Positions 39,554-48,376 of a stretch of 52,361 bases of DNA are shown here, piece after piece; position 1 is the stretch's first letter, and every line of letters starts with the position of its first letter. The stretch is from positions 1-52,361 of the forward strand of contig JAUIMK010000001.1 in NCBI GenBank assembly GCA_030432735.1, in the 5' to 3' direction. The translations under genes were made by a program, and so were the position numbers. The DNA comes from a bacterium. Its GTDB lineage: Bacteria > Myxococcota_A > UBA9160 > UBA4427. A model generated the notes under the pieces. The model did no database searches, had not been told where the DNA came from, and saw nothing but the letters and a program-made list of their open reading frames with translations.

Positions 39554-40555
39554 TCAGGCGGCGCAGACGTAGTCGAGGCCCTCGCGGTATCCGTACTCGT
39601 CGAGGCGTGCCCGGATCTCCCCACGCGGGCGCGATCCTGCGACCGAGACCACGAGCGGGTAGGGCGGTCGCTCCGCGAGGATCTCGATGGGGACGACCGG
39701 CGCGCCGGCGATCGCGTTCCCGAGCCGGCCGGGGTGGACCTCGACGATCGCGGCCGGGCGTCGGCCGAGCGACTCGAGCTGGCGTCGCAGGGCCTTGCCC
39801 GTCGCGCCGTGTCCCCAGAGCAGGTACTCCGGCGCCGCGGCGAGGAAGTCGCGGGACAGGTGCCACGCGCGGCAGGCGGTGAAGCGGTCGAGGCGACAGC
39901 GCGGGTCGGTCCGCGAGAGTCGGGTCGGGAGGTCGCGCCAGCCGAGGATGCGTTCGGGAACCGTGCCGACGACGGGGCCGTCGCGGAGCAGCCGCAGCAA
40001 CAGGTCGTAGTCCTCGGGCCAATCCCGATCGCGGTAGCGCAGGGTCGCGAGGCGTTCGCGACGGATCATGAGTGCGGGGTGGGCGACGGGACATTCGATG
40101 AAGCGCTCGCGCCAGATGCGTTCGGGGCTGTCTAGGCCGTTCAGCCAGCGTTCGTACGCGCGTCTTCCTTCGCGCAGCCCCTCGCGCGGAAAGAGCCGGA
40201 CCCCGCCGCCGACCGCCTGGAGTCCGGGTCGGGCGTCGAGCAGGGCCGCCTGCTTCGCGAGTCGGTCCCGACGCATCCAATCGTCGGCGTCGAAGCGGGC
40301 GACCAGCGGCGCCCGCGCCTCATCGAGGCCCGCTTCCAGGCTCGCGACGATCCCTTCGTGCGAACGCGCGAGGAGGCGGAAGCGCGCATCGCTTCGCGCG
40401 AACGACGCGGCGACGCGGGCCGAGTCGTCCGTCGAGCCGTCGTCGACGATCAGGCACTCGAAGTCGCGCTCGGTCTGTCGCGCCACGCTGCGCAGCGCCG
40501 TCGCGAGGGTGGCGTCGGCGTTCCAGACCGGCATGAGGACGGTCACACGGGGCAT
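39554..40555 (-). CDS. Family 2 glycosyltransferase with C-terminal Rossmann-like extension
   Basis: ATG 40553-40555 gives 333 aa. It has a GT-A N-terminus (VTVLMPVWNADATLATALRSVARQTERDFECLIVDDGSTDDS...RFDADD). The C-terminal ~110 aa (LLWGHGATGKALRRQLESLGRRPAAIVEVHPGRLGNAIAGAPVVPIE) resembles NeuD/PglD-type N-terminal domains. The upstream part of ORF 39554..41305 is antisense to the yfiR-like gene. Confidence 0.8.
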   Translation of the reverse strand: MPRVTVLMPVWNADATLATALRSVARQTERDFECLIVDDGSTDDSARVAASFARSDARFRLLARSHEGIVASLEAGLDEARAPLVARFDADDWMRRDRLAKQAALLDARPGLQAVGGGVRLFPREGLREGRRAYERWLNGLDSPERIWRERFIECPVAHPALMIRRERLATLRYRDRDWPEDYDLLLRLLRDGPVVGTVPERILGWRDLPTRLSRTDPRCRLDRFTACRAWHLSRDFLAAAPEYLLWGHGATGKALRRQLESLGRRPAAIVEVHPGRLGNAIAGAPVVPIEILAERPPYPLVVSVAGSRPRGEIRARLDEYGYREGLDYVCAA

Positions 40556-40726
40556 CGGGGGAAATCCTGAATCGGCGCGGCTGCGCAGCTGGGGGATCTC
40601 ACCCACGTCGGAATGAGATTTCGGTGACGAGGGTTGGGTTTCGCGATTCGGCTGCCGATGAATTGGAGCGAGCGGGTTCCCCGCCCCTCGATTGGAGTCA
40701 CGCGCGTGCTTCGAGCGACGCTTCTC

Positions 40727-41278
40727 ATGAGACCCGGACTGGTCCGCCTGCGTCGAACGTCGATCGGTTTCGCCCTCGGTCTGGTCGCTCTCGGCCTGAC
40801 GGCGACCGTGGCGCGCGCGCAATCCGAAGACCAGATCAAGGCCGCCTTCCTCTTCAATTTCGCTCGCTACGTCGAATGGCCCGACGCGGCCTTCTCGAGC
40901 GGGAGTACCCCGGTCCGGATCTGCATGGCCGGCGCCGACGACTTCGCGAGCATCGTGTCGAAGGCGGTTGGTGGCAAGAGCGTGGGCGACCGCGCGGTCG
41001 AGGTCGCCTCCGGCGTAGGCCTCGAAGATGCCGGCACCTGCCACATCCTCTACGTCGGTGCGGGTCTCGAGGCCGGCGCCGACGTCGTCGCGTCGAGCGT
41101 TTCCGGCGGGCACGTGTTCACCGTCGCCGATCGCGAGGGCTTCGCCGCGTCGGGCGGGATCGCCAACTTCATCCGCGCGGACAACAAGGTCCGCTTCGAG
41201 ATCAACCCCGATGCCGCGAAGCAGGCAGGGCTCAAGATCAGCTCGCGCCTGCTCCGTCTGGCCAAGGTCGTGGAGTAG
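40727..41278 (+). CDS. YfiR-family (DUF4154) periplasmic protein
   Basis: I use ATG 40727 (MRPGLVRLRRTSIGFALGLVALGLTATVARAQ, a signal peptide). The mature part has DUF4154/YfiR hallmarks KAAFLFNFARYVEWP and VRFEINPDAAKQAGLKISSRLLRLAK, plus two Cys (VRICMAG, GTCHILYV). Confidence 0.8.
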   Translation: MRPGLVRLRRTSIGFALGLVALGLTATVARAQSEDQIKAAFLFNFARYVEWPDAAFSSGSTPVRICMAGADDFASIVSKAVGGKSVGDRAVEVASGVGLEDAGTCHILYVGAGLEAGADVVASSVSGGHVFTVADREGFAASGGIANFIRADNKVRFEINPDAAKQAGLKISSRLLRLAKVVE

Positions 41279-41288
41279 GAGTCCGGAG

Positions 41289-43388
41289 ATGGGCGAATAC
41301 GACACCGATTCCGGGCGACGGGCGATGGGAACCTCCGCGGCACCGGCTTCCAGCCATCACGCGGGAAGCGATTCGATCCAGAGGCGGATCCAGCGCGGAT
41401 TCTTCGCGACGACCGGCCTCGCACTCGTGCTCACCGCCGGCGCACTCTTCACGACGGCCTTCGTGCAGTTCCGCCAGGACATGGACGAGAACCTGCTCGT
41501 GCTCGCCCGGGTGACCGGTGCGAACTCGGAGGCGTCGCTCCTCTTCGACGACGACCAGGCGGCGATGGAGACGCTCCGCGCCCTCAAGGCGGTCGATTCG
41601 ATCGAAGCGGCCGTGGTCTACGACGCGGAGGGTCGGGTCTTCGCGAAGTACGTCCGCACCGGGATCCAAGGCTTCCGGCCGCCCGGCGAACTCTCCTACG
41701 AACCGACCTGGACGCGCAAGAACATCGACCTCGCGTCGAAGATCCTGATGGGCGAGGAAGAGATCGGCACGGTCTTCCTCCGCTCGGACACGAAGCAGGT
41801 CCAGGCCTTCCTCTTCACGTCGATCGCGATCGTGGTCGGCGTGGTCGTCATCTCCCTCGTGCTCTGCTGGTGGGGTGCCGCCCGGCTGCAGCAGACGATC
41901 GCGACGCCGCTCGAGCAGCTCGTGCGCGGCGCGGCTTCGATGGCCGAAGGCGACCTCTCGACCCAGGTCACCGTCGGATCCGACGACGAAACCGGGGTCC
42001 TGGCTCGCGCGTTCAACGCGATGGTCGACAGCCTCCGCGGCCTGGTCTCGCAGGTCGGCGAGAACACGCGCTACGTCGCGTCGGCGATGGGCAAGCTCAC
42101 GTCGGCGAGCGCCGCGATGCGGGAAGAGGTCCAGCGTCAGGAAGAGGCCGTCGAGTCGACCGCCGAGTCCGTCGAGGGAATCATCGCCTCGATGCACGCC
42201 GTCAACGAGAACGTCGAGGCGCTCTCCGAGAACGCGATCGAGACCTCGAGCGCGGCGATCGAGATGGACTCCTCGATCGCAGAGACCGCGAACCACATCG
42301 ACGAGCTGTCCGAGATCATCGAGACGACGGCGTCGAGCGTCGTCGAGATGACGAGCGGAATTCGCGAGATCGCGCGCAGCGCGGACATCCTGAACCAGTC
42401 GACGGAGTCGACCGCCCAGGCGCTGGAGCTCCTCTCCGGGTCGGTGCGCACGGTCGAGTCGAACGCGAAGGAGAGCCACGCGCTCTCGGACCAGACCCAG
42501 AAGAAGGCGGAGGAGGGCATGTCCGCGGTCCACGAGACCGTCGAGGGCATGGTCGAGATCCAGGAGTCCTTCGAGGGGATCGAGTCGATCATCGGGAGCC
42601 TCTCGGAGAAGAGCGAGTCGATCGGCGCCGTCGTCAAGGTCATCGAGTCGGTCGTCGAACAGACGAACCTCCTCGCCCTCAACGCCGCGATCATCTCGTC
42701 CCAGGCGGGGGAGCACGGTCGTGCCTTCTCGGTCGTCGCCGAAGAGGTTCGCAGCCTCGCCGAACGCACCGCGTCGAGCACCCGCGAGATCGCCGACCTG
42801 ATCGACTCGGTCCAGGGCGGCGTCCACAACGCCGTCGCCGCGATGGACCAGGGCTCGACCCGCGTCGAGCGCGGCGTCGTGCTCGCCAACACCGCCGGGC
42901 GGATCCTCCAGGAGATCGGGGAGAGCACCCAGCAGTCGACCCGCTGGGCCCGGGAGATCGTCGAGGCCACCCGGAGTCAGGCGGCGGACATCGACCAGGT
43001 CGGCGTCGCGATGACGCGGGTCAAGGAGACGGCGACGCAGCTGAACCGCGGGACGCACGAGCAGGACAGCGCCAGCGCGGAGATCACCCGCGGCGTCGAG
43101 AAGATGCGTCACCTGGGCCTCGAGGTGAAGAACTCCGCGCAGGAGCAGCGCCGCGAGTCGAGCCTGATCACGCAGTCGGTCGAGATCGTCGCTGCGAAGA
43201 TCAAGGAGATCTCGGTCGAGACCAAGGATCAGAGCAAGCGTGCGGATCAGATCCAGGAAGCCCTCTCGGTCTTCCGGGAGGTCACGCTCCAGACGACCCG
43301 GCGCGCCGCCGAGACCGCCGAGACGGTCAGCGACCTCGCGGCCCACGCCGAGGGGCTCGAGCGCGAGATCGACCGCTTCCGGATCTAG
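41289..43388 (+). CDS. Methyl-accepting chemotaxis protein with YfiN/CHASE8-like periplasmic sensor, HAMP and very long signalling domain
   Basis: ATG 41289 lies 10 nt after the yfiR-like stop, preceded by GGAG. 699 aa: TM1 at about aa 37-59, periplasmic aa 60-171, TM2 at about aa 172-196, HAMP (PLEQLVRGAASMAEGDLSTQV...ETGVLARAFNAMVDSL), then the MCP tip EQTNLLALNAAIISSQAGEHGRAFSVVAEEVRSLAERT. Confidence 0.85.
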   Translation: MGEYDTDSGRRAMGTSAAPASSHHAGSDSIQRRIQRGFFATTGLALVLTAGALFTTAFVQFRQDMDENLLVLARVTGANSEASLLFDDDQAAMETLRALKAVDSIEAAVVYDAEGRVFAKYVRTGIQGFRPPGELSYEPTWTRKNIDLASKILMGEEEIGTVFLRSDTKQVQAFLFTSIAIVVGVVVISLVLCWWGAARLQQTIATPLEQLVRGAASMAEGDLSTQVTVGSDDETGVLARAFNAMVDSLRGLVSQVGENTRYVASAMGKLTSASAAMREEVQRQEEAVESTAESVEGIIASMHAVNENVEALSENAIETSSAAIEMDSSIAETANHIDELSEIIETTASSVVEMTSGIREIARSADILNQSTESTAQALELLSGSVRTVESNAKESHALSDQTQKKAEEGMSAVHETVEGMVEIQESFEGIESIIGSLSEKSESIGAVVKVIESVVEQTNLLALNAAIISSQAGEHGRAFSVVAEEVRSLAERTASSTREIADLIDSVQGGVHNAVAAMDQGSTRVERGVVLANTAGRILQEIGESTQQSTRWAREIVEATRSQAADIDQVGVAMTRVKETATQLNRGTHEQDSASAEITRGVEKMRHLGLEVKNSAQEQRRESSLITQSVEIVAAKIKEISVETKDQSKRADQIQEALSVFREVTLQTTRRAAETAETVSDLAAHAEGLEREIDRFRI

Positions 43389-45541
43389 CGCGGGACGGGG
43401 TCGCCCGCTTCGCGCGCCGCGTCGACGAAGATCGGGCTCGACCAGGCGTTGCCGCCGTCCACCTGCCGGATCCGGACGTAGTGGAACTCGCCGGCCTGGA
43501 GCGCCGGGATCGTCCGCTCGAGGTCCACGTGGAGCGGATCCTCCGGTAGGAGGCTCGCGACGCGTCCGCTCCGGACGAGCTCGATCGCTTCGATCGGCTC
43601 GGTCGCCTCGTAACGGAGGCGCAGGAGGTGGTCGCGGTCCCCTGCGACGAGGGTTCCGCCCATGTCGATGCCGTCGATCGACACCTCGAAGAAGGGGCGG
43701 ATGCCATTCGTCGCGAAAGTGTGTCGCCGCTTCAGGCTTTCCTTGACCGCGTCCCGGTCGAGGCGGTCGACGAAGAGACCCGCGAGTCCGCCGTGCCCTC
43801 CGGCGATCTCGGGGAGGCCGGGATGTCCGTCGTGGGAGTCGCCGCTGCCCACGAAGCCGAGCCGGTAGCCCGCGCGAAGGGCGTCGAGGACGAACCAGCC
43901 GGGCATGCCGCCCCGGACCGCCATCGGCATCTCCATCGACTCGCTCTGCCCGTGGACCGAGGCGATCTCGGCTACCGGCTCGAGCTCCGGATCCGGTCGG
44001 AAATGCCAATTCGTGGCGACCGGGTCGCCCGCGGAATGGTGCGTGAACGTCAGGGCGTTGCGGTCGCGGAGCGCGGCCCAGAGCTCGTCGGGGCGGTCGG
44101 TGGCGAAGTCGACGGCGGAGAAGATTTCGGGTCGGGGCTCGGCGCCCACCGGATCGAAGTAGAGGACGTGCCGGTGGCCGTGCAGCCAGCTCGTCCACTC
44201 GTAGCCGGGGATCGTGACGAATCGCTCCTGCTCTTGCGCTTCGTCGGTCGTCTCGAAGACGTCGCGGGTCGCCGCCGGGTCGAGGGCGAGGGGGCGGGCG
44301 CCCCAGTGGTCGTGGTCGGTGAGCGCGACGACGTCGAGGCGCGCGACCTCTCTCGCATAACGGAAATAGTCGTCGGGCCGGCCGGTCCCGTCGGAGAGCC
44401 GGCTGTGGCCGTGGAGGTCGCCCCAGACGAGTCGCTCGGGCGAGCGTCGCACGACGATCGGCGGGAGCGTCGCCGCCAGGCCGTCGAGGGCGTCGAGGCC
44501 GCGGATCCCGAGGCGGAGAACGCCTTCGCGCGAGACCGGACCGAGGGGAAGGCGCGCGCTGCCGTCCTGCCAGGCGTCGACCGCGAGGGTGCGCGGCTCG
44601 CCGAAGTCGACGGTCGATCCGGGCAACGCGCGGATCTCGAAGCGCGCGTTCTGCGGCCCCCGCGGCCCGGGCGCCTCCGCGTCGTCGAGACGCGGCGTGC
44701 GGTTGCCGAGGGCATCGAGCAGGGCCACGCGAACGGAGAACGCTTCGCCGGGTCCGAGATCCGCCGGACCGTGTGCGACGAGAAGCCGCGCGCGGCGCGC
44801 GGTGACGTCGAGGAGGGGGCCGTCGTCGATGAAGCGGCGATAGCCGTCGCCGTCCGCATCGACGGCGACGAGGATCCGGGCATCGTGCTCCGCATAGCGA
44901 TCCACCTGCGCGCCCCCCGGCCCGGCGCCGTAGACGAAGCGGATGCGGTCGCCCTCGCGGAGCGCGCCGCCCTCGACCCGGAAGCCCGTGCCGTGGTCGT
45001 CGGGAGCGAGGGTGGCGTCGCCGCGCACGACCACCGCCGTCGTGAAGCCCGGGGCCTCGCGGTCGACGTGCTGGACGGTGCTCCAGTCCCAGGATGCTTC
45101 GGCCATCGGGAAGATCGCCCCTCCTCGCGCGATGCCGTGCGGACCGACCTCGTAGACGAACTCGAAGCGGTGGGCGCTCGCCGCGGGGAGCGCGGGGCGT
45201 CGCGGCGAGTCCGCGCCTCGTCGCCATGCGGTCCATCCTCGCCAGGGCGGGGCGCCGATCGGCTCGACCCGCTCGAGCCAGGCGCGTCCGCCGCCGTCGC
45301 CGGGATGGGCGTCGGCCTCGAGATCGGCCAGCAGTAGGAGGTGCGTCTCGAGCTGGGCGTTCGGGGAGAGGGTGGGGTGTTGCTCCGTCCAGTCCTCCGG
45401 CAGCTCGAACCAGGGCGCGGACGGCAGGATCGGGGATTCCCCGTCCGTCGCCTCCGGCGAAGCGGGGGCTTCGGAGCCGGCCTCCTGCTCGGCCCCGCAT
45501 CCGAGGATTCCGAGGCAGAGGGCCGCGAGAAGCCCCTGCAG
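43385..45541 (-). CDS. PHP-domain / DUF3604-like metal-dependent phosphoesterase lipoprotein; 5' end unresolved
   Basis: Frame of ORF 43385..46138. Lipobox LGILGCG preceded by ARRLQGLLAAL; PHP-like motifs (VWGDLHGHSRLSDGTG, ALTDHDHW, GSGDSHDGHPG). No ATG/GTG/TTG lies in frame between the lipobox and the divergent gene. The coordinate 45541 is a CTG and only a placeholder. Confidence 0.6.
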   Translation of the reverse strand: MQGLLAALCLGILGCGAEQEAGSEAPASPEATDGESPILPSAPWFELPEDWTEQHPTLSPNAQLETHLLLLADLEADAHPGDGGGRAWLERVEPIGAPPWRGWTAWRRGADSPRRPALPAASAHRFEFVYEVGPHGIARGGAIFPMAEASWDWSTVQHVDREAPGFTTAVVVRGDATLAPDDHGTGFRVEGGALREGDRIRFVYGAGPGGAQVDRYAEHDARILVAVDADGDGYRRFIDDGPLLDVTARRARLLVAHGPADLGPGEAFSVRVALLDALGNRTPRLDDAEAPGPRGPQNARFEIRALPGSTVDFGEPRTLAVDAWQDGSARLPLGPVSREGVLRLGIRGLDALDGLAATLPPIVVRRSPERLVWGDLHGHSRLSDGTGRPDDYFRYAREVARLDVVALTDHDHWGARPLALDPAATRDVFETTDEAQEQERFVTIPGYEWTSWLHGHRHVLYFDPVGAEPRPEIFSAVDFATDRPDELWAALRDRNALTFTHHSAGDPVATNWHFRPDPELEPVAEIASVHGQSESMEMPMAVRGGMPGWFVLDALRAGYRLGFVGSGDSHDGHPGLPEIAGGHGGLAGLFVDRLDRDAVKESLKRRHTFATNGIRPFFEVSIDGIDMGGTLVAGDRDHLLRLRYEATEPIEAIELVRSGRVASLLPEDPLHVDLERTIPALQAGEFHYVRIRQVDGGNAWSSPIFVDAAREAGDPVPR

Positions 45542-45655: not shown

Positions 45656-48376
45656 TTGAGCAGAAGAGCCAGGAACGTCGGGGGGGTGGTCCGTCCGGTG
45701 TCCGGCTTGTCCAGGGAGACGACCGGATTGGGTTGGCTGCAGAAGACGCCGCTCGTGAGCCTGCTCTTCGCCGTCGCGATCGCGGCTGTGCCCTTCCTGC
45801 TCGGCGATCCGTCGCCCGGCGCCGGGGCCCGCTTCGACGACGCGCGCGAAGCGGCCCGGGACTACTTCGTAAGGAACCCCTCCCTCGACGTCGACGCCGT
45901 GGGCGAGCTCGTCCTCGACGGCGTCTGGCTGGCGGAGGCCCGCACTGCCGCGGCCGAGTCCGGGGAAGCCAGCGACGTCCGTCTGCCACCGCGCCTGCTG
46001 GCGCGCTCCCAGGCTCGGCTCGACAGCCTGATCGACGAGGCCTACGTGGCGCGCATGGCGGCGGATCCCGCCTGGCGTCTCGGAGTGCTCGATCAGCAGA
46101 CCCCCGCTCGCAACTACGTCGCGCATGCCTTCGTCCACGAGACGATGGTGGCGTTGGGGCTCTGCATCGCCGTTCTCCTGCTCGTCGGGATGCCGCTCGA
46201 GCGCACCTGGGGCTCACCGATCTTCGCGCTCTTCGTCCTCGCCGCGATCCCGTTGACGGCCCAGGCGTACCGCGTCCTCGACGGATCGAGCGGTGTGCCC
46301 TGGAGCGGGAGTGCCGGGCTGGCCGGAGCGCTGCTCGGAGCCTACTTCATTCGCGGTCTCGGCGGGCACTACGCCGTGCCGGGCTGGGTTCTCCTACCCA
46401 GCTGGATCGCGACGGAAGCGTTCGTCGTGCGCGGATTCTGGATCGACGATCTCGGCTCGATCCCCTGGGCGACGCTCTGCGCCGCGGTGGGCGTCGGCGC
46501 GTCGACCGCCGGCGCGCTCCGACTGCTGAACGTCGAGGCGCGCGTCGATTCGCTCTCGTCGTCTCGCCGGAGCAAGGCGCCGAACCCGGTCGTCCTGCGC
46601 GCGGCGCGGATGCGGAGCGACGGAGATCCCTATCAGGCCTTCGACCTGATCCATGCGGCCTGGCGGGAGGATCCCGAGGATCGCGACGTCTGCGAGGCGT
46701 TCTTCTCGATCGCCGTCGAGGTCGGCCAGCCCGAGGCCGCCGCCGACGCGATCGTTCCGAGTCTGCGCACGGCCCTTCGAAGGGGCGAGTTCACGCGCGC
46801 CGTGGAGACCTGGCTTCCCCTGGCTACGAAGCGCTGTGAAGTCGCGCTGGAGCCGACGGCCTTCGTGCGCCTCGGCGAAGCGCTCCTCGACGCGAGTCAC
46901 CCGGAAGAAGCGCTCTTCTCGTTGCAGAGCGCGATCGACGCCGGGGTGTCTTCCGCCGGCGCCGCCCGGATCGTGAACATCGCCCGCGACCTCGAGCCCG
47001 GGCTCACGCGACGGGCCGCCGAGATCGCCCTCGCGGACCCGTCGATCGAGGGCAACCTGCGCGAGGAGCTCGAACGGCTCGTCGCGTCGACCCACACGGC
47101 ACCGCCGGCCGCGAGCCCGCCGCCGCCGCCGGAATCCCGCTCCCAGCTCGACCGCCGCGTGCATGCGGAGCATCAGCCGGTCGAGACGACCGCCTTCCCG
47201 CTCGAGCTCGATCGAGACGTCGAGACGACGTCCGCGCCGGATCCGAACGAGGAGGCCCTCGCCGCGCAGGCCCTCGACGTCGGCGCGTTCTCCGCGGCGC
47301 GCCTCGGTTCGCCCCCCGCTTCGGCGTCCGCTCCGGAAGCGCCCCCCGTCGACTCCGGCGACGTGCTCTCCCACTGGAACGACCCGTCCTCGGTCGAGCC
47401 CGACGCGCTCGCCGCCTTCGCCCCCGATCTGGACGAAGCCATGAGCGAGGAGGCGCTCTTCGAGGTGGACGATCTCGAGACGCCGGAGACGGGCTTCGAC
47501 TTCGGGCTCCGCAGTGTCGGCGCCGATCAGGTCGACCCGCGAGACGACGAGACCGACACCGACCTGACGCCGCTGATGGACTCGACCGACGAGCTCACGA
47601 GCCCGCTCGCCGACGGCGACGAGGAAGACACGTCGACGGCGGTCTTCGGTTCGTCGGAGGCCCCCGCGTCGACGGAGCCCGAAGCGCCGACCACGTTCCT
47701 CGAGGTGGAGGACGCGGAGGCGAAGACCGCCTTCTTCGAAGCGGAGGACGCCGACGCGAGGACGGCCTTCTTCGAGGCGGAGGATGCGGAGGACGCGGAG
47801 GCGAAGACGGCGTTTCTCGACCTGTCCGCCCCCGCGGAGGGTCCGGCGCGGACCGCGAGTGCGGGCGAGGATGCGACGCCCGTCGCCGCGTCGGCCACGG
47901 ACATCGCGTTCGCGTCCGCCGGTGCCGAGGCGGCGACGACCCTGCTCGAGCGCCGCGCGCTCAAGGCCGTCGCTGCGGTTCCGGTCGACGCCCGCGAGGA
48001 CTGGATCGAGATCGACGCCGAGGGCCGCGGGAAGTCCCGGCTTCCGCTGCATCGGATCGAGGCGATCGCGATCGGCGCCGTCGACGGGCTCGGGCCGCGG
48101 CCGGTGCTCGTGATCGACTTCGTCCTCAACTGGCGCGGCGACGCGAGCGAACCGCTCAAGTCGATCCGGTTGCGGAGCGATCGCTTCGATCCGCTGACCT
48201 TCTCGCCGGACGCCGCCCACCCGCTCGAGGCGCTCACCCGCTGGATCGGGACGCTCGAAGCGAGGACGAACGCCGCCTGCCTGCCTTCGCGGGACGTCCT
48301 GGCCGGCACCTTCGCGCGCTTCGCGGACCTCGCGTCCTACGAGCGCGAGGTGCTGCTCGCGGAGTCGACGTCCTAG
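45656..48376 (+). CDS. Rhomboid-like polytopic membrane domain fused to TPR-like helical region, long acidic repeat-containing linker and an uncharacterised C-terminal domain
   Basis: 906 aa from TTG 45656; in-frame GTG/TTG alternatives exist up to about 45728. It has a rhomboid-like core (VGMPLERTWGSPIFALFVL...WSGSAGLAGALLGAYF), a helical-repeat middle, an Asp/Glu/Ala/Pro-rich region from about aa 490-760, and a C-terminal ~130 aa with no family I recognise. Confidence 0.7.
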   Translation: MSRRARNVGGVVRPVSGLSRETTGLGWLQKTPLVSLLFAVAIAAVPFLLGDPSPGAGARFDDAREAARDYFVRNPSLDVDAVGELVLDGVWLAEARTAAAESGEASDVRLPPRLLARSQARLDSLIDEAYVARMAADPAWRLGVLDQQTPARNYVAHAFVHETMVALGLCIAVLLLVGMPLERTWGSPIFALFVLAAIPLTAQAYRVLDGSSGVPWSGSAGLAGALLGAYFIRGLGGHYAVPGWVLLPSWIATEAFVVRGFWIDDLGSIPWATLCAAVGVGASTAGALRLLNVEARVDSLSSSRRSKAPNPVVLRAARMRSDGDPYQAFDLIHAAWREDPEDRDVCEAFFSIAVEVGQPEAAADAIVPSLRTALRRGEFTRAVETWLPLATKRCEVALEPTAFVRLGEALLDASHPEEALFSLQSAIDAGVSSAGAARIVNIARDLEPGLTRRAAEIALADPSIEGNLREELERLVASTHTAPPAASPPPPPESRSQLDRRVHAEHQPVETTAFPLELDRDVETTSAPDPNEEALAAQALDVGAFSAARLGSPPASASAPEAPPVDSGDVLSHWNDPSSVEPDALAAFAPDLDEAMSEEALFEVDDLETPETGFDFGLRSVGADQVDPRDDETDTDLTPLMDSTDELTSPLADGDEEDTSTAVFGSSEAPASTEPEAPTTFLEVEDAEAKTAFFEAEDADARTAFFEAEDAEDAEAKTAFLDLSAPAEGPARTASAGEDATPVAASATDIAFASAGAEAATTLLERRALKAVAAVPVDAREDWIEIDAEGRGKSRLPLHRIEAIAIGAVDGLGPRPVLVIDFVLNWRGDASEPLKSIRLRSDRFDPLTFSPDAAHPLEALTRWIGTLEARTNAACLPSRDVLAGTFARFADLASYEREVLLAESTS
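47690..47824 (+). repeat. In-frame tandem repeat (36-nt / 12-aa unit, about 3.5 copies) inside the rhomboid-like gene
   Basis: TTFLEVEDAEAK | TAFFEAEDADAR | TAFFEAEDAEDAEAK | TAFLDL. The units start at 47690, 47726, 47762 and 47807. The third unit carries a 9-nt (AED) insertion. Confidence 0.85.

Follow-up and report, generated by a model that had tools for sequence, protein, structure and literature searches.

What does a periplasmic protein of the YfiR family do when the gene behind it codes for a chemoreceptor? The question is raised by two adjacent genes in a stretch of 52,361 nucleotides (nt) from an uncultured bacterium of the Myxococcota (assembly GCA_030432735.1, contig JAUIMK010000001.1, positions 1 to 52,361), which has a G+C content of about 70% and is called the window here as a whole. 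Its close relatives are metagenome-assembled genomes (MAGs) labelled Myxococcota. The first gene (40727-41278) codes for a YfiR-like protein and the second (41289-43388) for a transducer of the methyl-accepting chemotaxis protein (MCP) type; both genes, and all features located within them, lie on the forward (+) strand. An earlier note, made from the letters of this DNA alone, had proposed that a YfiR switch is wired to MCP output at this locus. The features that this note describes are all in the sequence at the positions given. We consider it likely that the operon encodes a sensor that works by partner switching in the periplasm, as YfiR/YfiN does, with an MCP output replacing the diguanylate cyclase. 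With a CHASE8 match for residues 60-171 of the transducer and a conserved adjacency of DUF4154 and MCP genes, the linkage of a YfiR-like/sensor pair to MCP output is well supported by comparative evidence.

The first gene product is a secreted protein of the YfiR family. Its gene runs from the ATG at 40727 to the TAG stop codon at 41276-41278 and encodes a periplasmic protein with a precursor of 183 aa. It matches the Pfam family DUF4154 ('YfiR/HmsC-like', PF13689) over model positions 2-143 of 143 with E=7.2e-42 (143.3 bits against a cut-off of 24.9), and a phmmer search against the PDB returned only chains of YfiR from Pseudomonas aeruginosa, the best being 4zhu with E=1.6e-6. To judge by its sequence, the N-terminus, MRPGLVRLRRTSIGFALGLVALGLTATVARA|QSED, holds a Sec signal peptide of 31 aa (40727-40819) that ends in an AxA site (...TVARA|QSED), and conservation in alignments of homologues begins at A29-x-A31-Q32-S33-E34-D35. 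An AlphaFold2 model made from an alignment of 50 homologues has a predicted local distance difference test score (pLDDT) of 90.5 and a predicted template modelling score (pTM) of 0.80, with residues 1-30 modelled as a lone helix at low confidence. In a fold search of the PDB with this model the best 15 matches were all YfiR (probability 1.00, TM-score about 0.70).

The second gene product (699 aa) is an inner-membrane transducer with a periplasmic CHASE8 domain, a HAMP domain and a long MCP signalling domain. Hydrophobic segments at residues ~37-60 and ~173-196, the transmembrane segments TM1 and TM2, bracket a periplasmic stretch of ~112 aa, so that the domain order read from the sequence in the earlier note agrees with Pfam and with the hydrophobic segments. 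The CHASE8 sensor (PF17152) spans residues 62-164 (41472-41780; E=1e-17, 64.7 bits against a cut-off of 27). Residues 60-171, which had been likened to YfiN-type sensors, match CHASE8 well above threshold and keep a motif of the 'AAVVF' type. Residues 53-189 align with residues 37-170 of Escherichia coli DgcN with 25% identity over 139 aa (E=1e-7); the two DgcN strings quoted in the earlier note, LEAAVVFADGPAATETLAALG and GETIGEVRLTA, are correct and align to the window protein.

The HAMP domain (PF00672) covers residues 202-250 (41892-42038; E=3.1e-15) and the MCP signalling core (PF00015) residues 399-580 (42483-43028; E=6.1e-40, 137.3 bits against a cut-off of 34.6). The tip of the signalling hairpin, ...NLLALNAAIISSQAGEHGRAF..., lies at residues 461-480 (42669-42728), with AGEHGRAF at 473-480. 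There are 225 aa from the end of HAMP to the tip and 224 aa after it, corresponding to 32+32 heptads, which is, judged by arm length alone, the length of MCP class 64H (heptad classes as listed in PMC6943060 and PMC8235581). E. coli Tar has 31% identity to the product over 317 aa and matches only the MCP gene in the window. No GGDEF domain was found in the product by Pfam, its C-terminal 450 aa being MCP signalling domain, and the protein is therefore a sensor-domain homologue of YfiN and not a YfiN orthologue.

An AlphaFold2 model of residues 1-260 reaches a pLDDT of about 88-91 in the periplasmic part. In this model TM1 runs into a long helix that ends at an ASLLF motif, which is followed by a second helix, a four-stranded sheet and then TM2; the sensor domain is predicted to have a PDC/PAS-like fold. 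Among single domains in the PDB it comes closest to the periplasmic domain of CdgS9, a LapD orthologue (4u64, TM-score 0.68), and to the CitA PAS domain, and WalK sensor domains were matched as well. A sequence search for a solved CHASE8 structure found none.

Both halves of the interface proposed by Malone et al. (2012) are conserved, namely the Phe of the sensor and the C-terminal patch of YfiR. The site of YfiN that binds YfiR is 'AAVVF', centred on the Phe (Malone et al. 2012, PMC3375315). Its counterpart in the window is E81-A-S-L-L-F86 (41529-41546), which aligns with EAAVVF of E. coli DgcN, and no exception to the motif Phe (F86) occurs among the 76 DUF4154-linked sensors or among 122 CHASE8 representatives. 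On the partner side, the proposed YfiN-/YfiB-binding surface of P. aeruginosa YfiR comprises F151, F162, E163 and L183 (Malone et al. 2012, PMC3375315; Xu 2016, PMC4887326). These residues are F148, F157, E158 and L178 here, invariant or nearly so among relatives, and the equivalents of F162, E163 and L183 belong to the patch F157-E158-I-N160 ... L175-L176-R-L178 (41195-41260). F157, N160 and L175 occur without exception in the 28 MCP-type pairs and in 40-43 of the 43 kinase-type pairs; for L178 the counts are 27 of 28 and 37 of 43, respectively, and L176 varies little or not at all among relatives linked to MCPs or kinases. Repression of YfiN by YfiR via these residues has genetic and biochemical precedent (PMC3375315).

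To follow the pairing itself, we scanned a single genome for each GTDB species, with an alignment of DUF4154 as query, and obtained 80 loci (numbered with the prefix L). A CHASE8 gene begins within a few nt downstream of DUF4154 in 76 of them, and the spacing between the two genes is -4 to +84 nt in most relatives. The outputs of these CHASE8 genes are 43 hybrid histidine kinases, 27 MCPs and one GGDEF-EAL protein, the remainder being truncated. Hybrid kinases occur in Acidobacteriota, Zoogloea/Accumulibacter, Thermodesulfobacteriota and Calditrichaceae, the GGDEF-EAL output is from Nitrospiraceae, and all 27 loci with MCP output are from MAGs of the Myxococcota type. Three relatives have the same pair in the same neighbourhood, with YfiR-like proteins that are 81%, 60% and 56% identical to that of the window. 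As they share the whole neighbourhood, their pair alone proves little. Six other MCP-type loci (L022, L027, L029, L031, L040, L045) share none of the genes that flank the pair in the window.

A second search was seeded with the CHASE8-HAMP segment, which avoids the bias of starting from DUF4154, and was run against 1.84 billion representatives. It returned 13,810 clusters at E<=1e-3. Among the best 150 of these there are 84 kinases, 25 MCPs and 3 GGDEF/EAL proteins, as classified with phmmer probes taken from the loci. The ten MCP-type representative clusters that were looked up are all metagenome or MAG proteins. In five of the seven CHASE8-MCP representatives looked up, DUF4154 is encoded directly upstream, each time in a different neighbourhood (L087, L088, L089, L092, L093). 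Altogether the MCP-type pair is found in at least eight unrelated neighbourhoods (L022, L027/L029, L031/L040/L045, L087, L088, L089, L092 and L093), and the adjacency of DUF4154 and MCP genes, whose lack of conservation the earlier note had named as grounds for refutation, is conserved in many genomes. The two genes remain together across deep divergence and many neighbourhoods. In a neighbour-joining tree of partner and sensor the MCP-type pairs fall into two groups, with the deep nodes unresolved, a topology compatible with one origin of these pairs as well as with two.

Within the window, the stop codon of the yfiR-like gene and the ATG of the MCP gene at 41289 are separated by the gap of 10 nt that had been noted before. 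A GGAG abuts this ATG directly, and therefore AGGAG at 41277-41281, 7 nt before the start codon, is the better candidate for the Shine-Dalgarno sequence. The upstream neighbour of the yfiR-like gene is a divergent family-2 glycosyltransferase gene. Downstream of the MCP gene there is a convergent gene of the DUF3604 family on the reverse strand (-), and the two stop codons overlap in the palindrome CTAG at 43385-43388, which leaves no space for a terminator between these genes. With a divergent gene upstream and a tightly convergent gene downstream, the yfiR-like and MCP genes form a two-gene operon. A scan for promoters and terminators in 40300-43800 gave nothing that exceeded the expectation from shuffled sequence.

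Several observations on the relatives stand apart from the question of the pair. In the Myxococcales MAG UWMA-0330 (L019:6001-6790), which has the neighbourhood of the window, the yfiR-like gene is intact and the MCP gene is cut to its first ~75-100 codons before the DUF3604 gene; the receptor may have been lost in nature, or the assembly may be at fault. Among loci L006, L010, L015, L022 and L023 several are titled 'uncultured Spirochaetaceae', and L013 is titled 'Planctomycetota'. All are collinear with Myxococcota MAGs, with an asparaginyl-tRNA synthetase (AsnRS) identity of 79-96%, and taxon labels on such records look unreliable. Two CHASE8-HAMP-MCP genes found by the second search have other upstream neighbours, a GDSL/ALGX-like gene in one case (L091:6001-8049) and a divergent gene in the other (L094:1581-3626); the sensor Phe motif is kept in both.

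In loci of Zoogloea and related Rhodocyclaceae (L048, L050, L053, L056, L062, L065, L067, L069-L072, L074, L075, L078, L082, L083), a gene matching both GGDEF and EAL lies on the same strand after the CHASE8 hybrid kinase, about +3500 from DUF4154. In the Accumulibacter-type loci L049, L052, L058, L059, L066 and L068 the GGDEF match is slightly closer to DUF4154. This gene order suggests that kinase-type systems may still end in the turnover of cyclic di-GMP (c-di-GMP). For Dechloromonas, Table S4 of Malone et al. has the entry 'operon contains cdG genes' (PMC3375315).

How might such a pair work? By homology to YfiR-YfiN of P. aeruginosa, the YfiR-like protein would bind the sensor via its C-terminal hydrophobic patch (F157, L175, L176, L178), and the contact site on the sensor would be the exposed Phe of ASLLF, where the first periplasmic helix ends. 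Binding of the partner would fix TM2 and HAMP in one signalling state, and its release would flip the receptor and raise or lower the activity of a CheA-type kinase whose gene would lie elsewhere in the genome, with motility or some other function under Che control as the possible outcome. We infer the binding, its sign and its trigger by transfer from the P. aeruginosa model, and the repression and the input of envelope or redox stress that the earlier note had proposed have the same standing. More speculatively, release might follow when the partner is lost or misfolds, such as upon reduction of Cys66-Cys105, or else an unlinked envelope partner might sequester the YfiR-like protein.

The YfiR-like protein has exactly two cysteines, C66 in VRICMAG (codon 40922-40924) and C105 in GTCHILYV (codon 41039-41041), as the earlier note had pointed out. 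In the phmmer alignment to 4zhu they align with Cys71 and Cys110 of P. aeruginosa YfiR, a disulfide whose state differs between the oxidised and the non-oxidised crystal form (PMC4887326). Cys66 is invariant among 50 close homologues, and the C66-C105 pair is kept in 23 of the 28 MCP-type and 38 of the 43 kinase-type relatives. Because the pair is invariant in the clade of the window, redox control via C66-C105 is plausible in that clade.

Several results speak against a YfiR/YfiN-type switch with MCP output. Neither the window nor the flanking DNA of any related locus contains che genes. For the window this was established with tblastn, where E. coli CheA, CheW, CheY, CheB, CheR and CheZ, MotA and MotB, YfiB and two queries for TonB-dependent receptors had no match in the 52 kb, and with Pfam scans of the main open reading frames (ORFs), which returned no che, mot, yfiB/OmpA-like or TonB-receptor gene; the absence of yfiB and che genes from the window had been reported before. 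The cytoplasmic domain of the MCP has no canonical methylation motif, the sole motif match sitting in TM2/HAMP and not being meaningful. The Cys145-Cys152 pair of P. aeruginosa YfiR, described as important in folding (PMC4887326), is without a counterpart in the alignment to 4zhu. The C66-C105 equivalents are absent from 5 of the 28 MCP-type partners (L027, L029, L031, L040, L045), so redox control is no general input and was rejected in that role. Finally, two of the seven CHASE8-MCPs looked up (L091 and L094) are without an adjoining DUF4154 gene. A CHASE8-MCP sensor can therefore exist without a linked partner, and conservation of the adjacency, though strong, is not absolute.

A different view of the pair emerges from the distant relatives. 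About 50 of the 80 loci have, directly upstream of DUF4154 and on the same strand, a gene resembling TonB-dependent receptors (TBDRs) that encodes a Plug domain and a beta-barrel in 670-740 aa, with gaps of -4 to +76 nt where these were measured. Examples are L028:305-2494, L044:726-2897, L049:3870-5924, L032:3-1853, L045:357-2426, L031:2-1330, L087:3444-5447 and L088:3246-5459, and there are about 45 further loci. The triad of TBDR, DUF4154 protein and CHASE8 sensor, the latter with kinase, GGDEF-EAL or MCP output, spans six phyla or classes (Acidobacteriota, Betaproteobacteria, Nitrospiraceae, Thermodesulfobacteriota, Calditrichaceae and Myxococcota), and L031, L040, L045, L087 and L088 are triad loci of the MCP type, beside about 45 of the kinase type. 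Zoogloea oleivorans Buc and Z. oryzae NBRC 102407 (loci L048 and L071) are culturable carriers of the triad. In a Burkholderiales MAG (L077:6001-9500), TonB-receptor genes are found on both sides of DUF4154 and the CHASE8 kinase comes only after the second receptor. TonB is not mentioned by Malone et al. (2012, PMC3375315), and our full-text literature searches found no paper that links YfiR and a TonB receptor.

The pair in the window could then be a reduced form of this triad, with an outer-membrane partner encoded elsewhere that captures or releases the YfiR-like protein and so takes the role that YfiB has in gammaproteobacteria. The frequency of the upstream gene, also at MCP-type loci, favours such a relay. 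However, the triad is absent from the window, other members of its clade have no TBDR gene within the flanks examined, and none of the linked receptors has a FecA-type N-terminal signalling domain, even at E<=1. For the window itself we regard the relay as rather doubtful.

For the family as a whole, the triad suggests an ancestor with a part in the outer membrane, for which YfiB may have been substituted in gammaproteobacteria. A wider proposal, which we put forward tentatively as a possibility, is that the pair makes up the inner half of a trans-envelope system that has yet to be described. Its ancestral outer-membrane part would be TBDR-like, with YfiB as the substitute in gammaproteobacteria, the DUF4154 protein would move back and forth between this receptor and the inner-membrane sensor, and the system would have been rewired in Myxococcota to an MCP of 64-heptad length. 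If this is true, an event in the outer membrane or the periplasm would steer a Che-like pathway in Myxococcota, and the lineage of the window would either keep its outer-membrane partner elsewhere or have become a stand-alone periplasmic, possibly redox, sensor. The trans-envelope proposal bears on the relatives more than on the window.

The DUF4154 protein might instead be a co-receptor, that is, a small-molecule binder that docks on CHASE8 only when loaded or only when empty and thereby presents a chemical cue to the MCP. It would then resemble maltose-binding protein acting with Tar instead of a repressor that is released by stress. After YfiR, the fold search ranked substrate-binding proteins of the periplasm next (3lkv; 3lft, in complex with L-Trp; and a Rhodothermus 'substrate-binding protein'), and vitamin B6 and L-Trp are bound at the YfiB-binding site in crystals of P. 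aeruginosa YfiR (PMC4887326). An MCP output also fits the sensing of gradients better than a stress switch. However, the affinities of YfiR for vitamin B6 and L-Trp are reported to be in the ten-millimolar range (PMC4887326), and the DUF4154 protein has one lobe and half the size of the binding proteins to which it is related. A co-receptor seems to us unlikely.

Gene order that was simply inherited, with the MCP sensing some other input via CHASE8 and the DUF4154 protein acting on another target, is very improbable: 21 of the 27 MCP-type loci, plus L001-L004, do share the whole neighbourhood of the window (RecBCD-like genes, RsgA, AsnRS, the family-2 glycosyltransferase, the pair and DUF3604), a part that could be plain synteny, and the two CHASE8-MCPs without a DUF4154 neighbour fit this as well, but the pair persists in its unrelated neighbourhoods and with three different output domains, the gaps between the genes are tiny or the genes overlap, and both interface motifs are conserved.

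Further along the window, at 45656-48376 (+), there is an ORF of 906 aa without a Pfam match. It has a membrane region at the N-terminus and a long acidic, Ala/Glu-rich repetitive middle (…AEAKTAFFEAEDADARTAFFEAEDAEDAEAKTAF…). Homologues of 819-882 aa with 45-76% identity, also without Pfam matches, sit at the equivalent position in relatives.

The earlier note had taken a YfiR-MCP module to be unstudied. Full-text literature searches found no experimental study of such a pair, so this part of the claim stands, but MCP output had already been listed in silico. Malone et al. (2012) described YfiR-YfiN[PAS/HAMP] as a modular core, the outputs found in silico being histidine kinases, GGDEF-EAL and MCPs (PMC3375315, Discussion and Table S4), and the entry in Table S4 reads 'Polaromonas: YfiN has MCP output domain' (PMC3375315). 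That survey covered few genomes, and its MCP-type systems were not followed up (PMC3375315). The window pair is a further case of this known, barely explored kind of YfiR-sensor-MCP system; the concept has been published, and because the conceptual point was made in 2012 the gain is incremental.

What the pair adds is a view of the YfiR-type partner-switch sensor, which so far has been studied only as a switch for c-di-GMP and biofilms in pathogens, as a general-purpose input module that is routinely coupled to chemoreceptor-type signalling in uncultured Myxococcota. A tractable YfiR-MCP pair would offer a way to ask how a PDC domain that is regulated by a protein partner drives HAMP and MCP domains. 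Read-outs of chemotaxis signalling are fast and quantitative, and they could clarify the YfiR-YfiN interface, which is still unsolved. The linkage to TonB receptors in most of the distant relatives may be less known and is the part that could lead to something new.

The closest of the known systems are YfiBNR/TpbB of P. aeruginosa, YfiRNB-DgcN of E. coli and HmsCDE of Yersinia pestis. In these, as in the window, a gene for a periplasmic DUF4154 protein adjoins that of an inner-membrane sensor with the order TM-CHASE8-TM-HAMP, and the gene order is yfiR, then sensor. The Phe motif of the AAVVF type, the C-terminal hydrophobic patch of YfiR and an equivalent of the Cys71-Cys110 pair are shared as well. 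The output differs, being an MCP signalling domain here and GGDEF there, and direct synthesis of c-di-GMP is therefore not to be expected from the window pair. Unlike those systems, the window has no YfiB, a Pal/OmpA-like lipoprotein, in the operon or elsewhere along its length; the Cys145-Cys152 pair is missing, and identity to the proteins from E. coli and P. aeruginosa is only 20-25%. The in silico module of Malone et al. (2012) is alike in having a yfiR homologue syntenic with a YfiN-type sensor, an MCP in place of GGDEF, no yfiB in the operon and conserved interface residues. It comes from a betaproteobacterium, whereas the window is from an uncultured member of the Myxococcota and its MCP has a signalling domain of 64-heptad length.

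The modelled sensor matches the periplasmic domain of a LapD orthologue best, and WalK sensor domains too, which invites comparison with LapD-LapG and WalK-YycH/YycI. The periplasmic or extracellular PDC/PAS domains of LapD and WalK bind a protein partner (LapG and YycH/YycI, respectively) and no small ligand. The likeness is one of structure, however; LapD signals inside-out, and the proteins it partners with have no relation to DUF4154. With chemoreceptors that depend on binding proteins (Tar with maltose-binding protein, Trg with ribose- or galactose-binding protein), the window pair would share the principle that a soluble periplasmic protein with a fold like that of binding proteins modulates an MCP. 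Tar and Trg have four-helix-bundle sensors and two-lobe binding proteins encoded with transporters, whereas here the partner, a DUF4154 protein of one lobe, shares an operon with its receptor.

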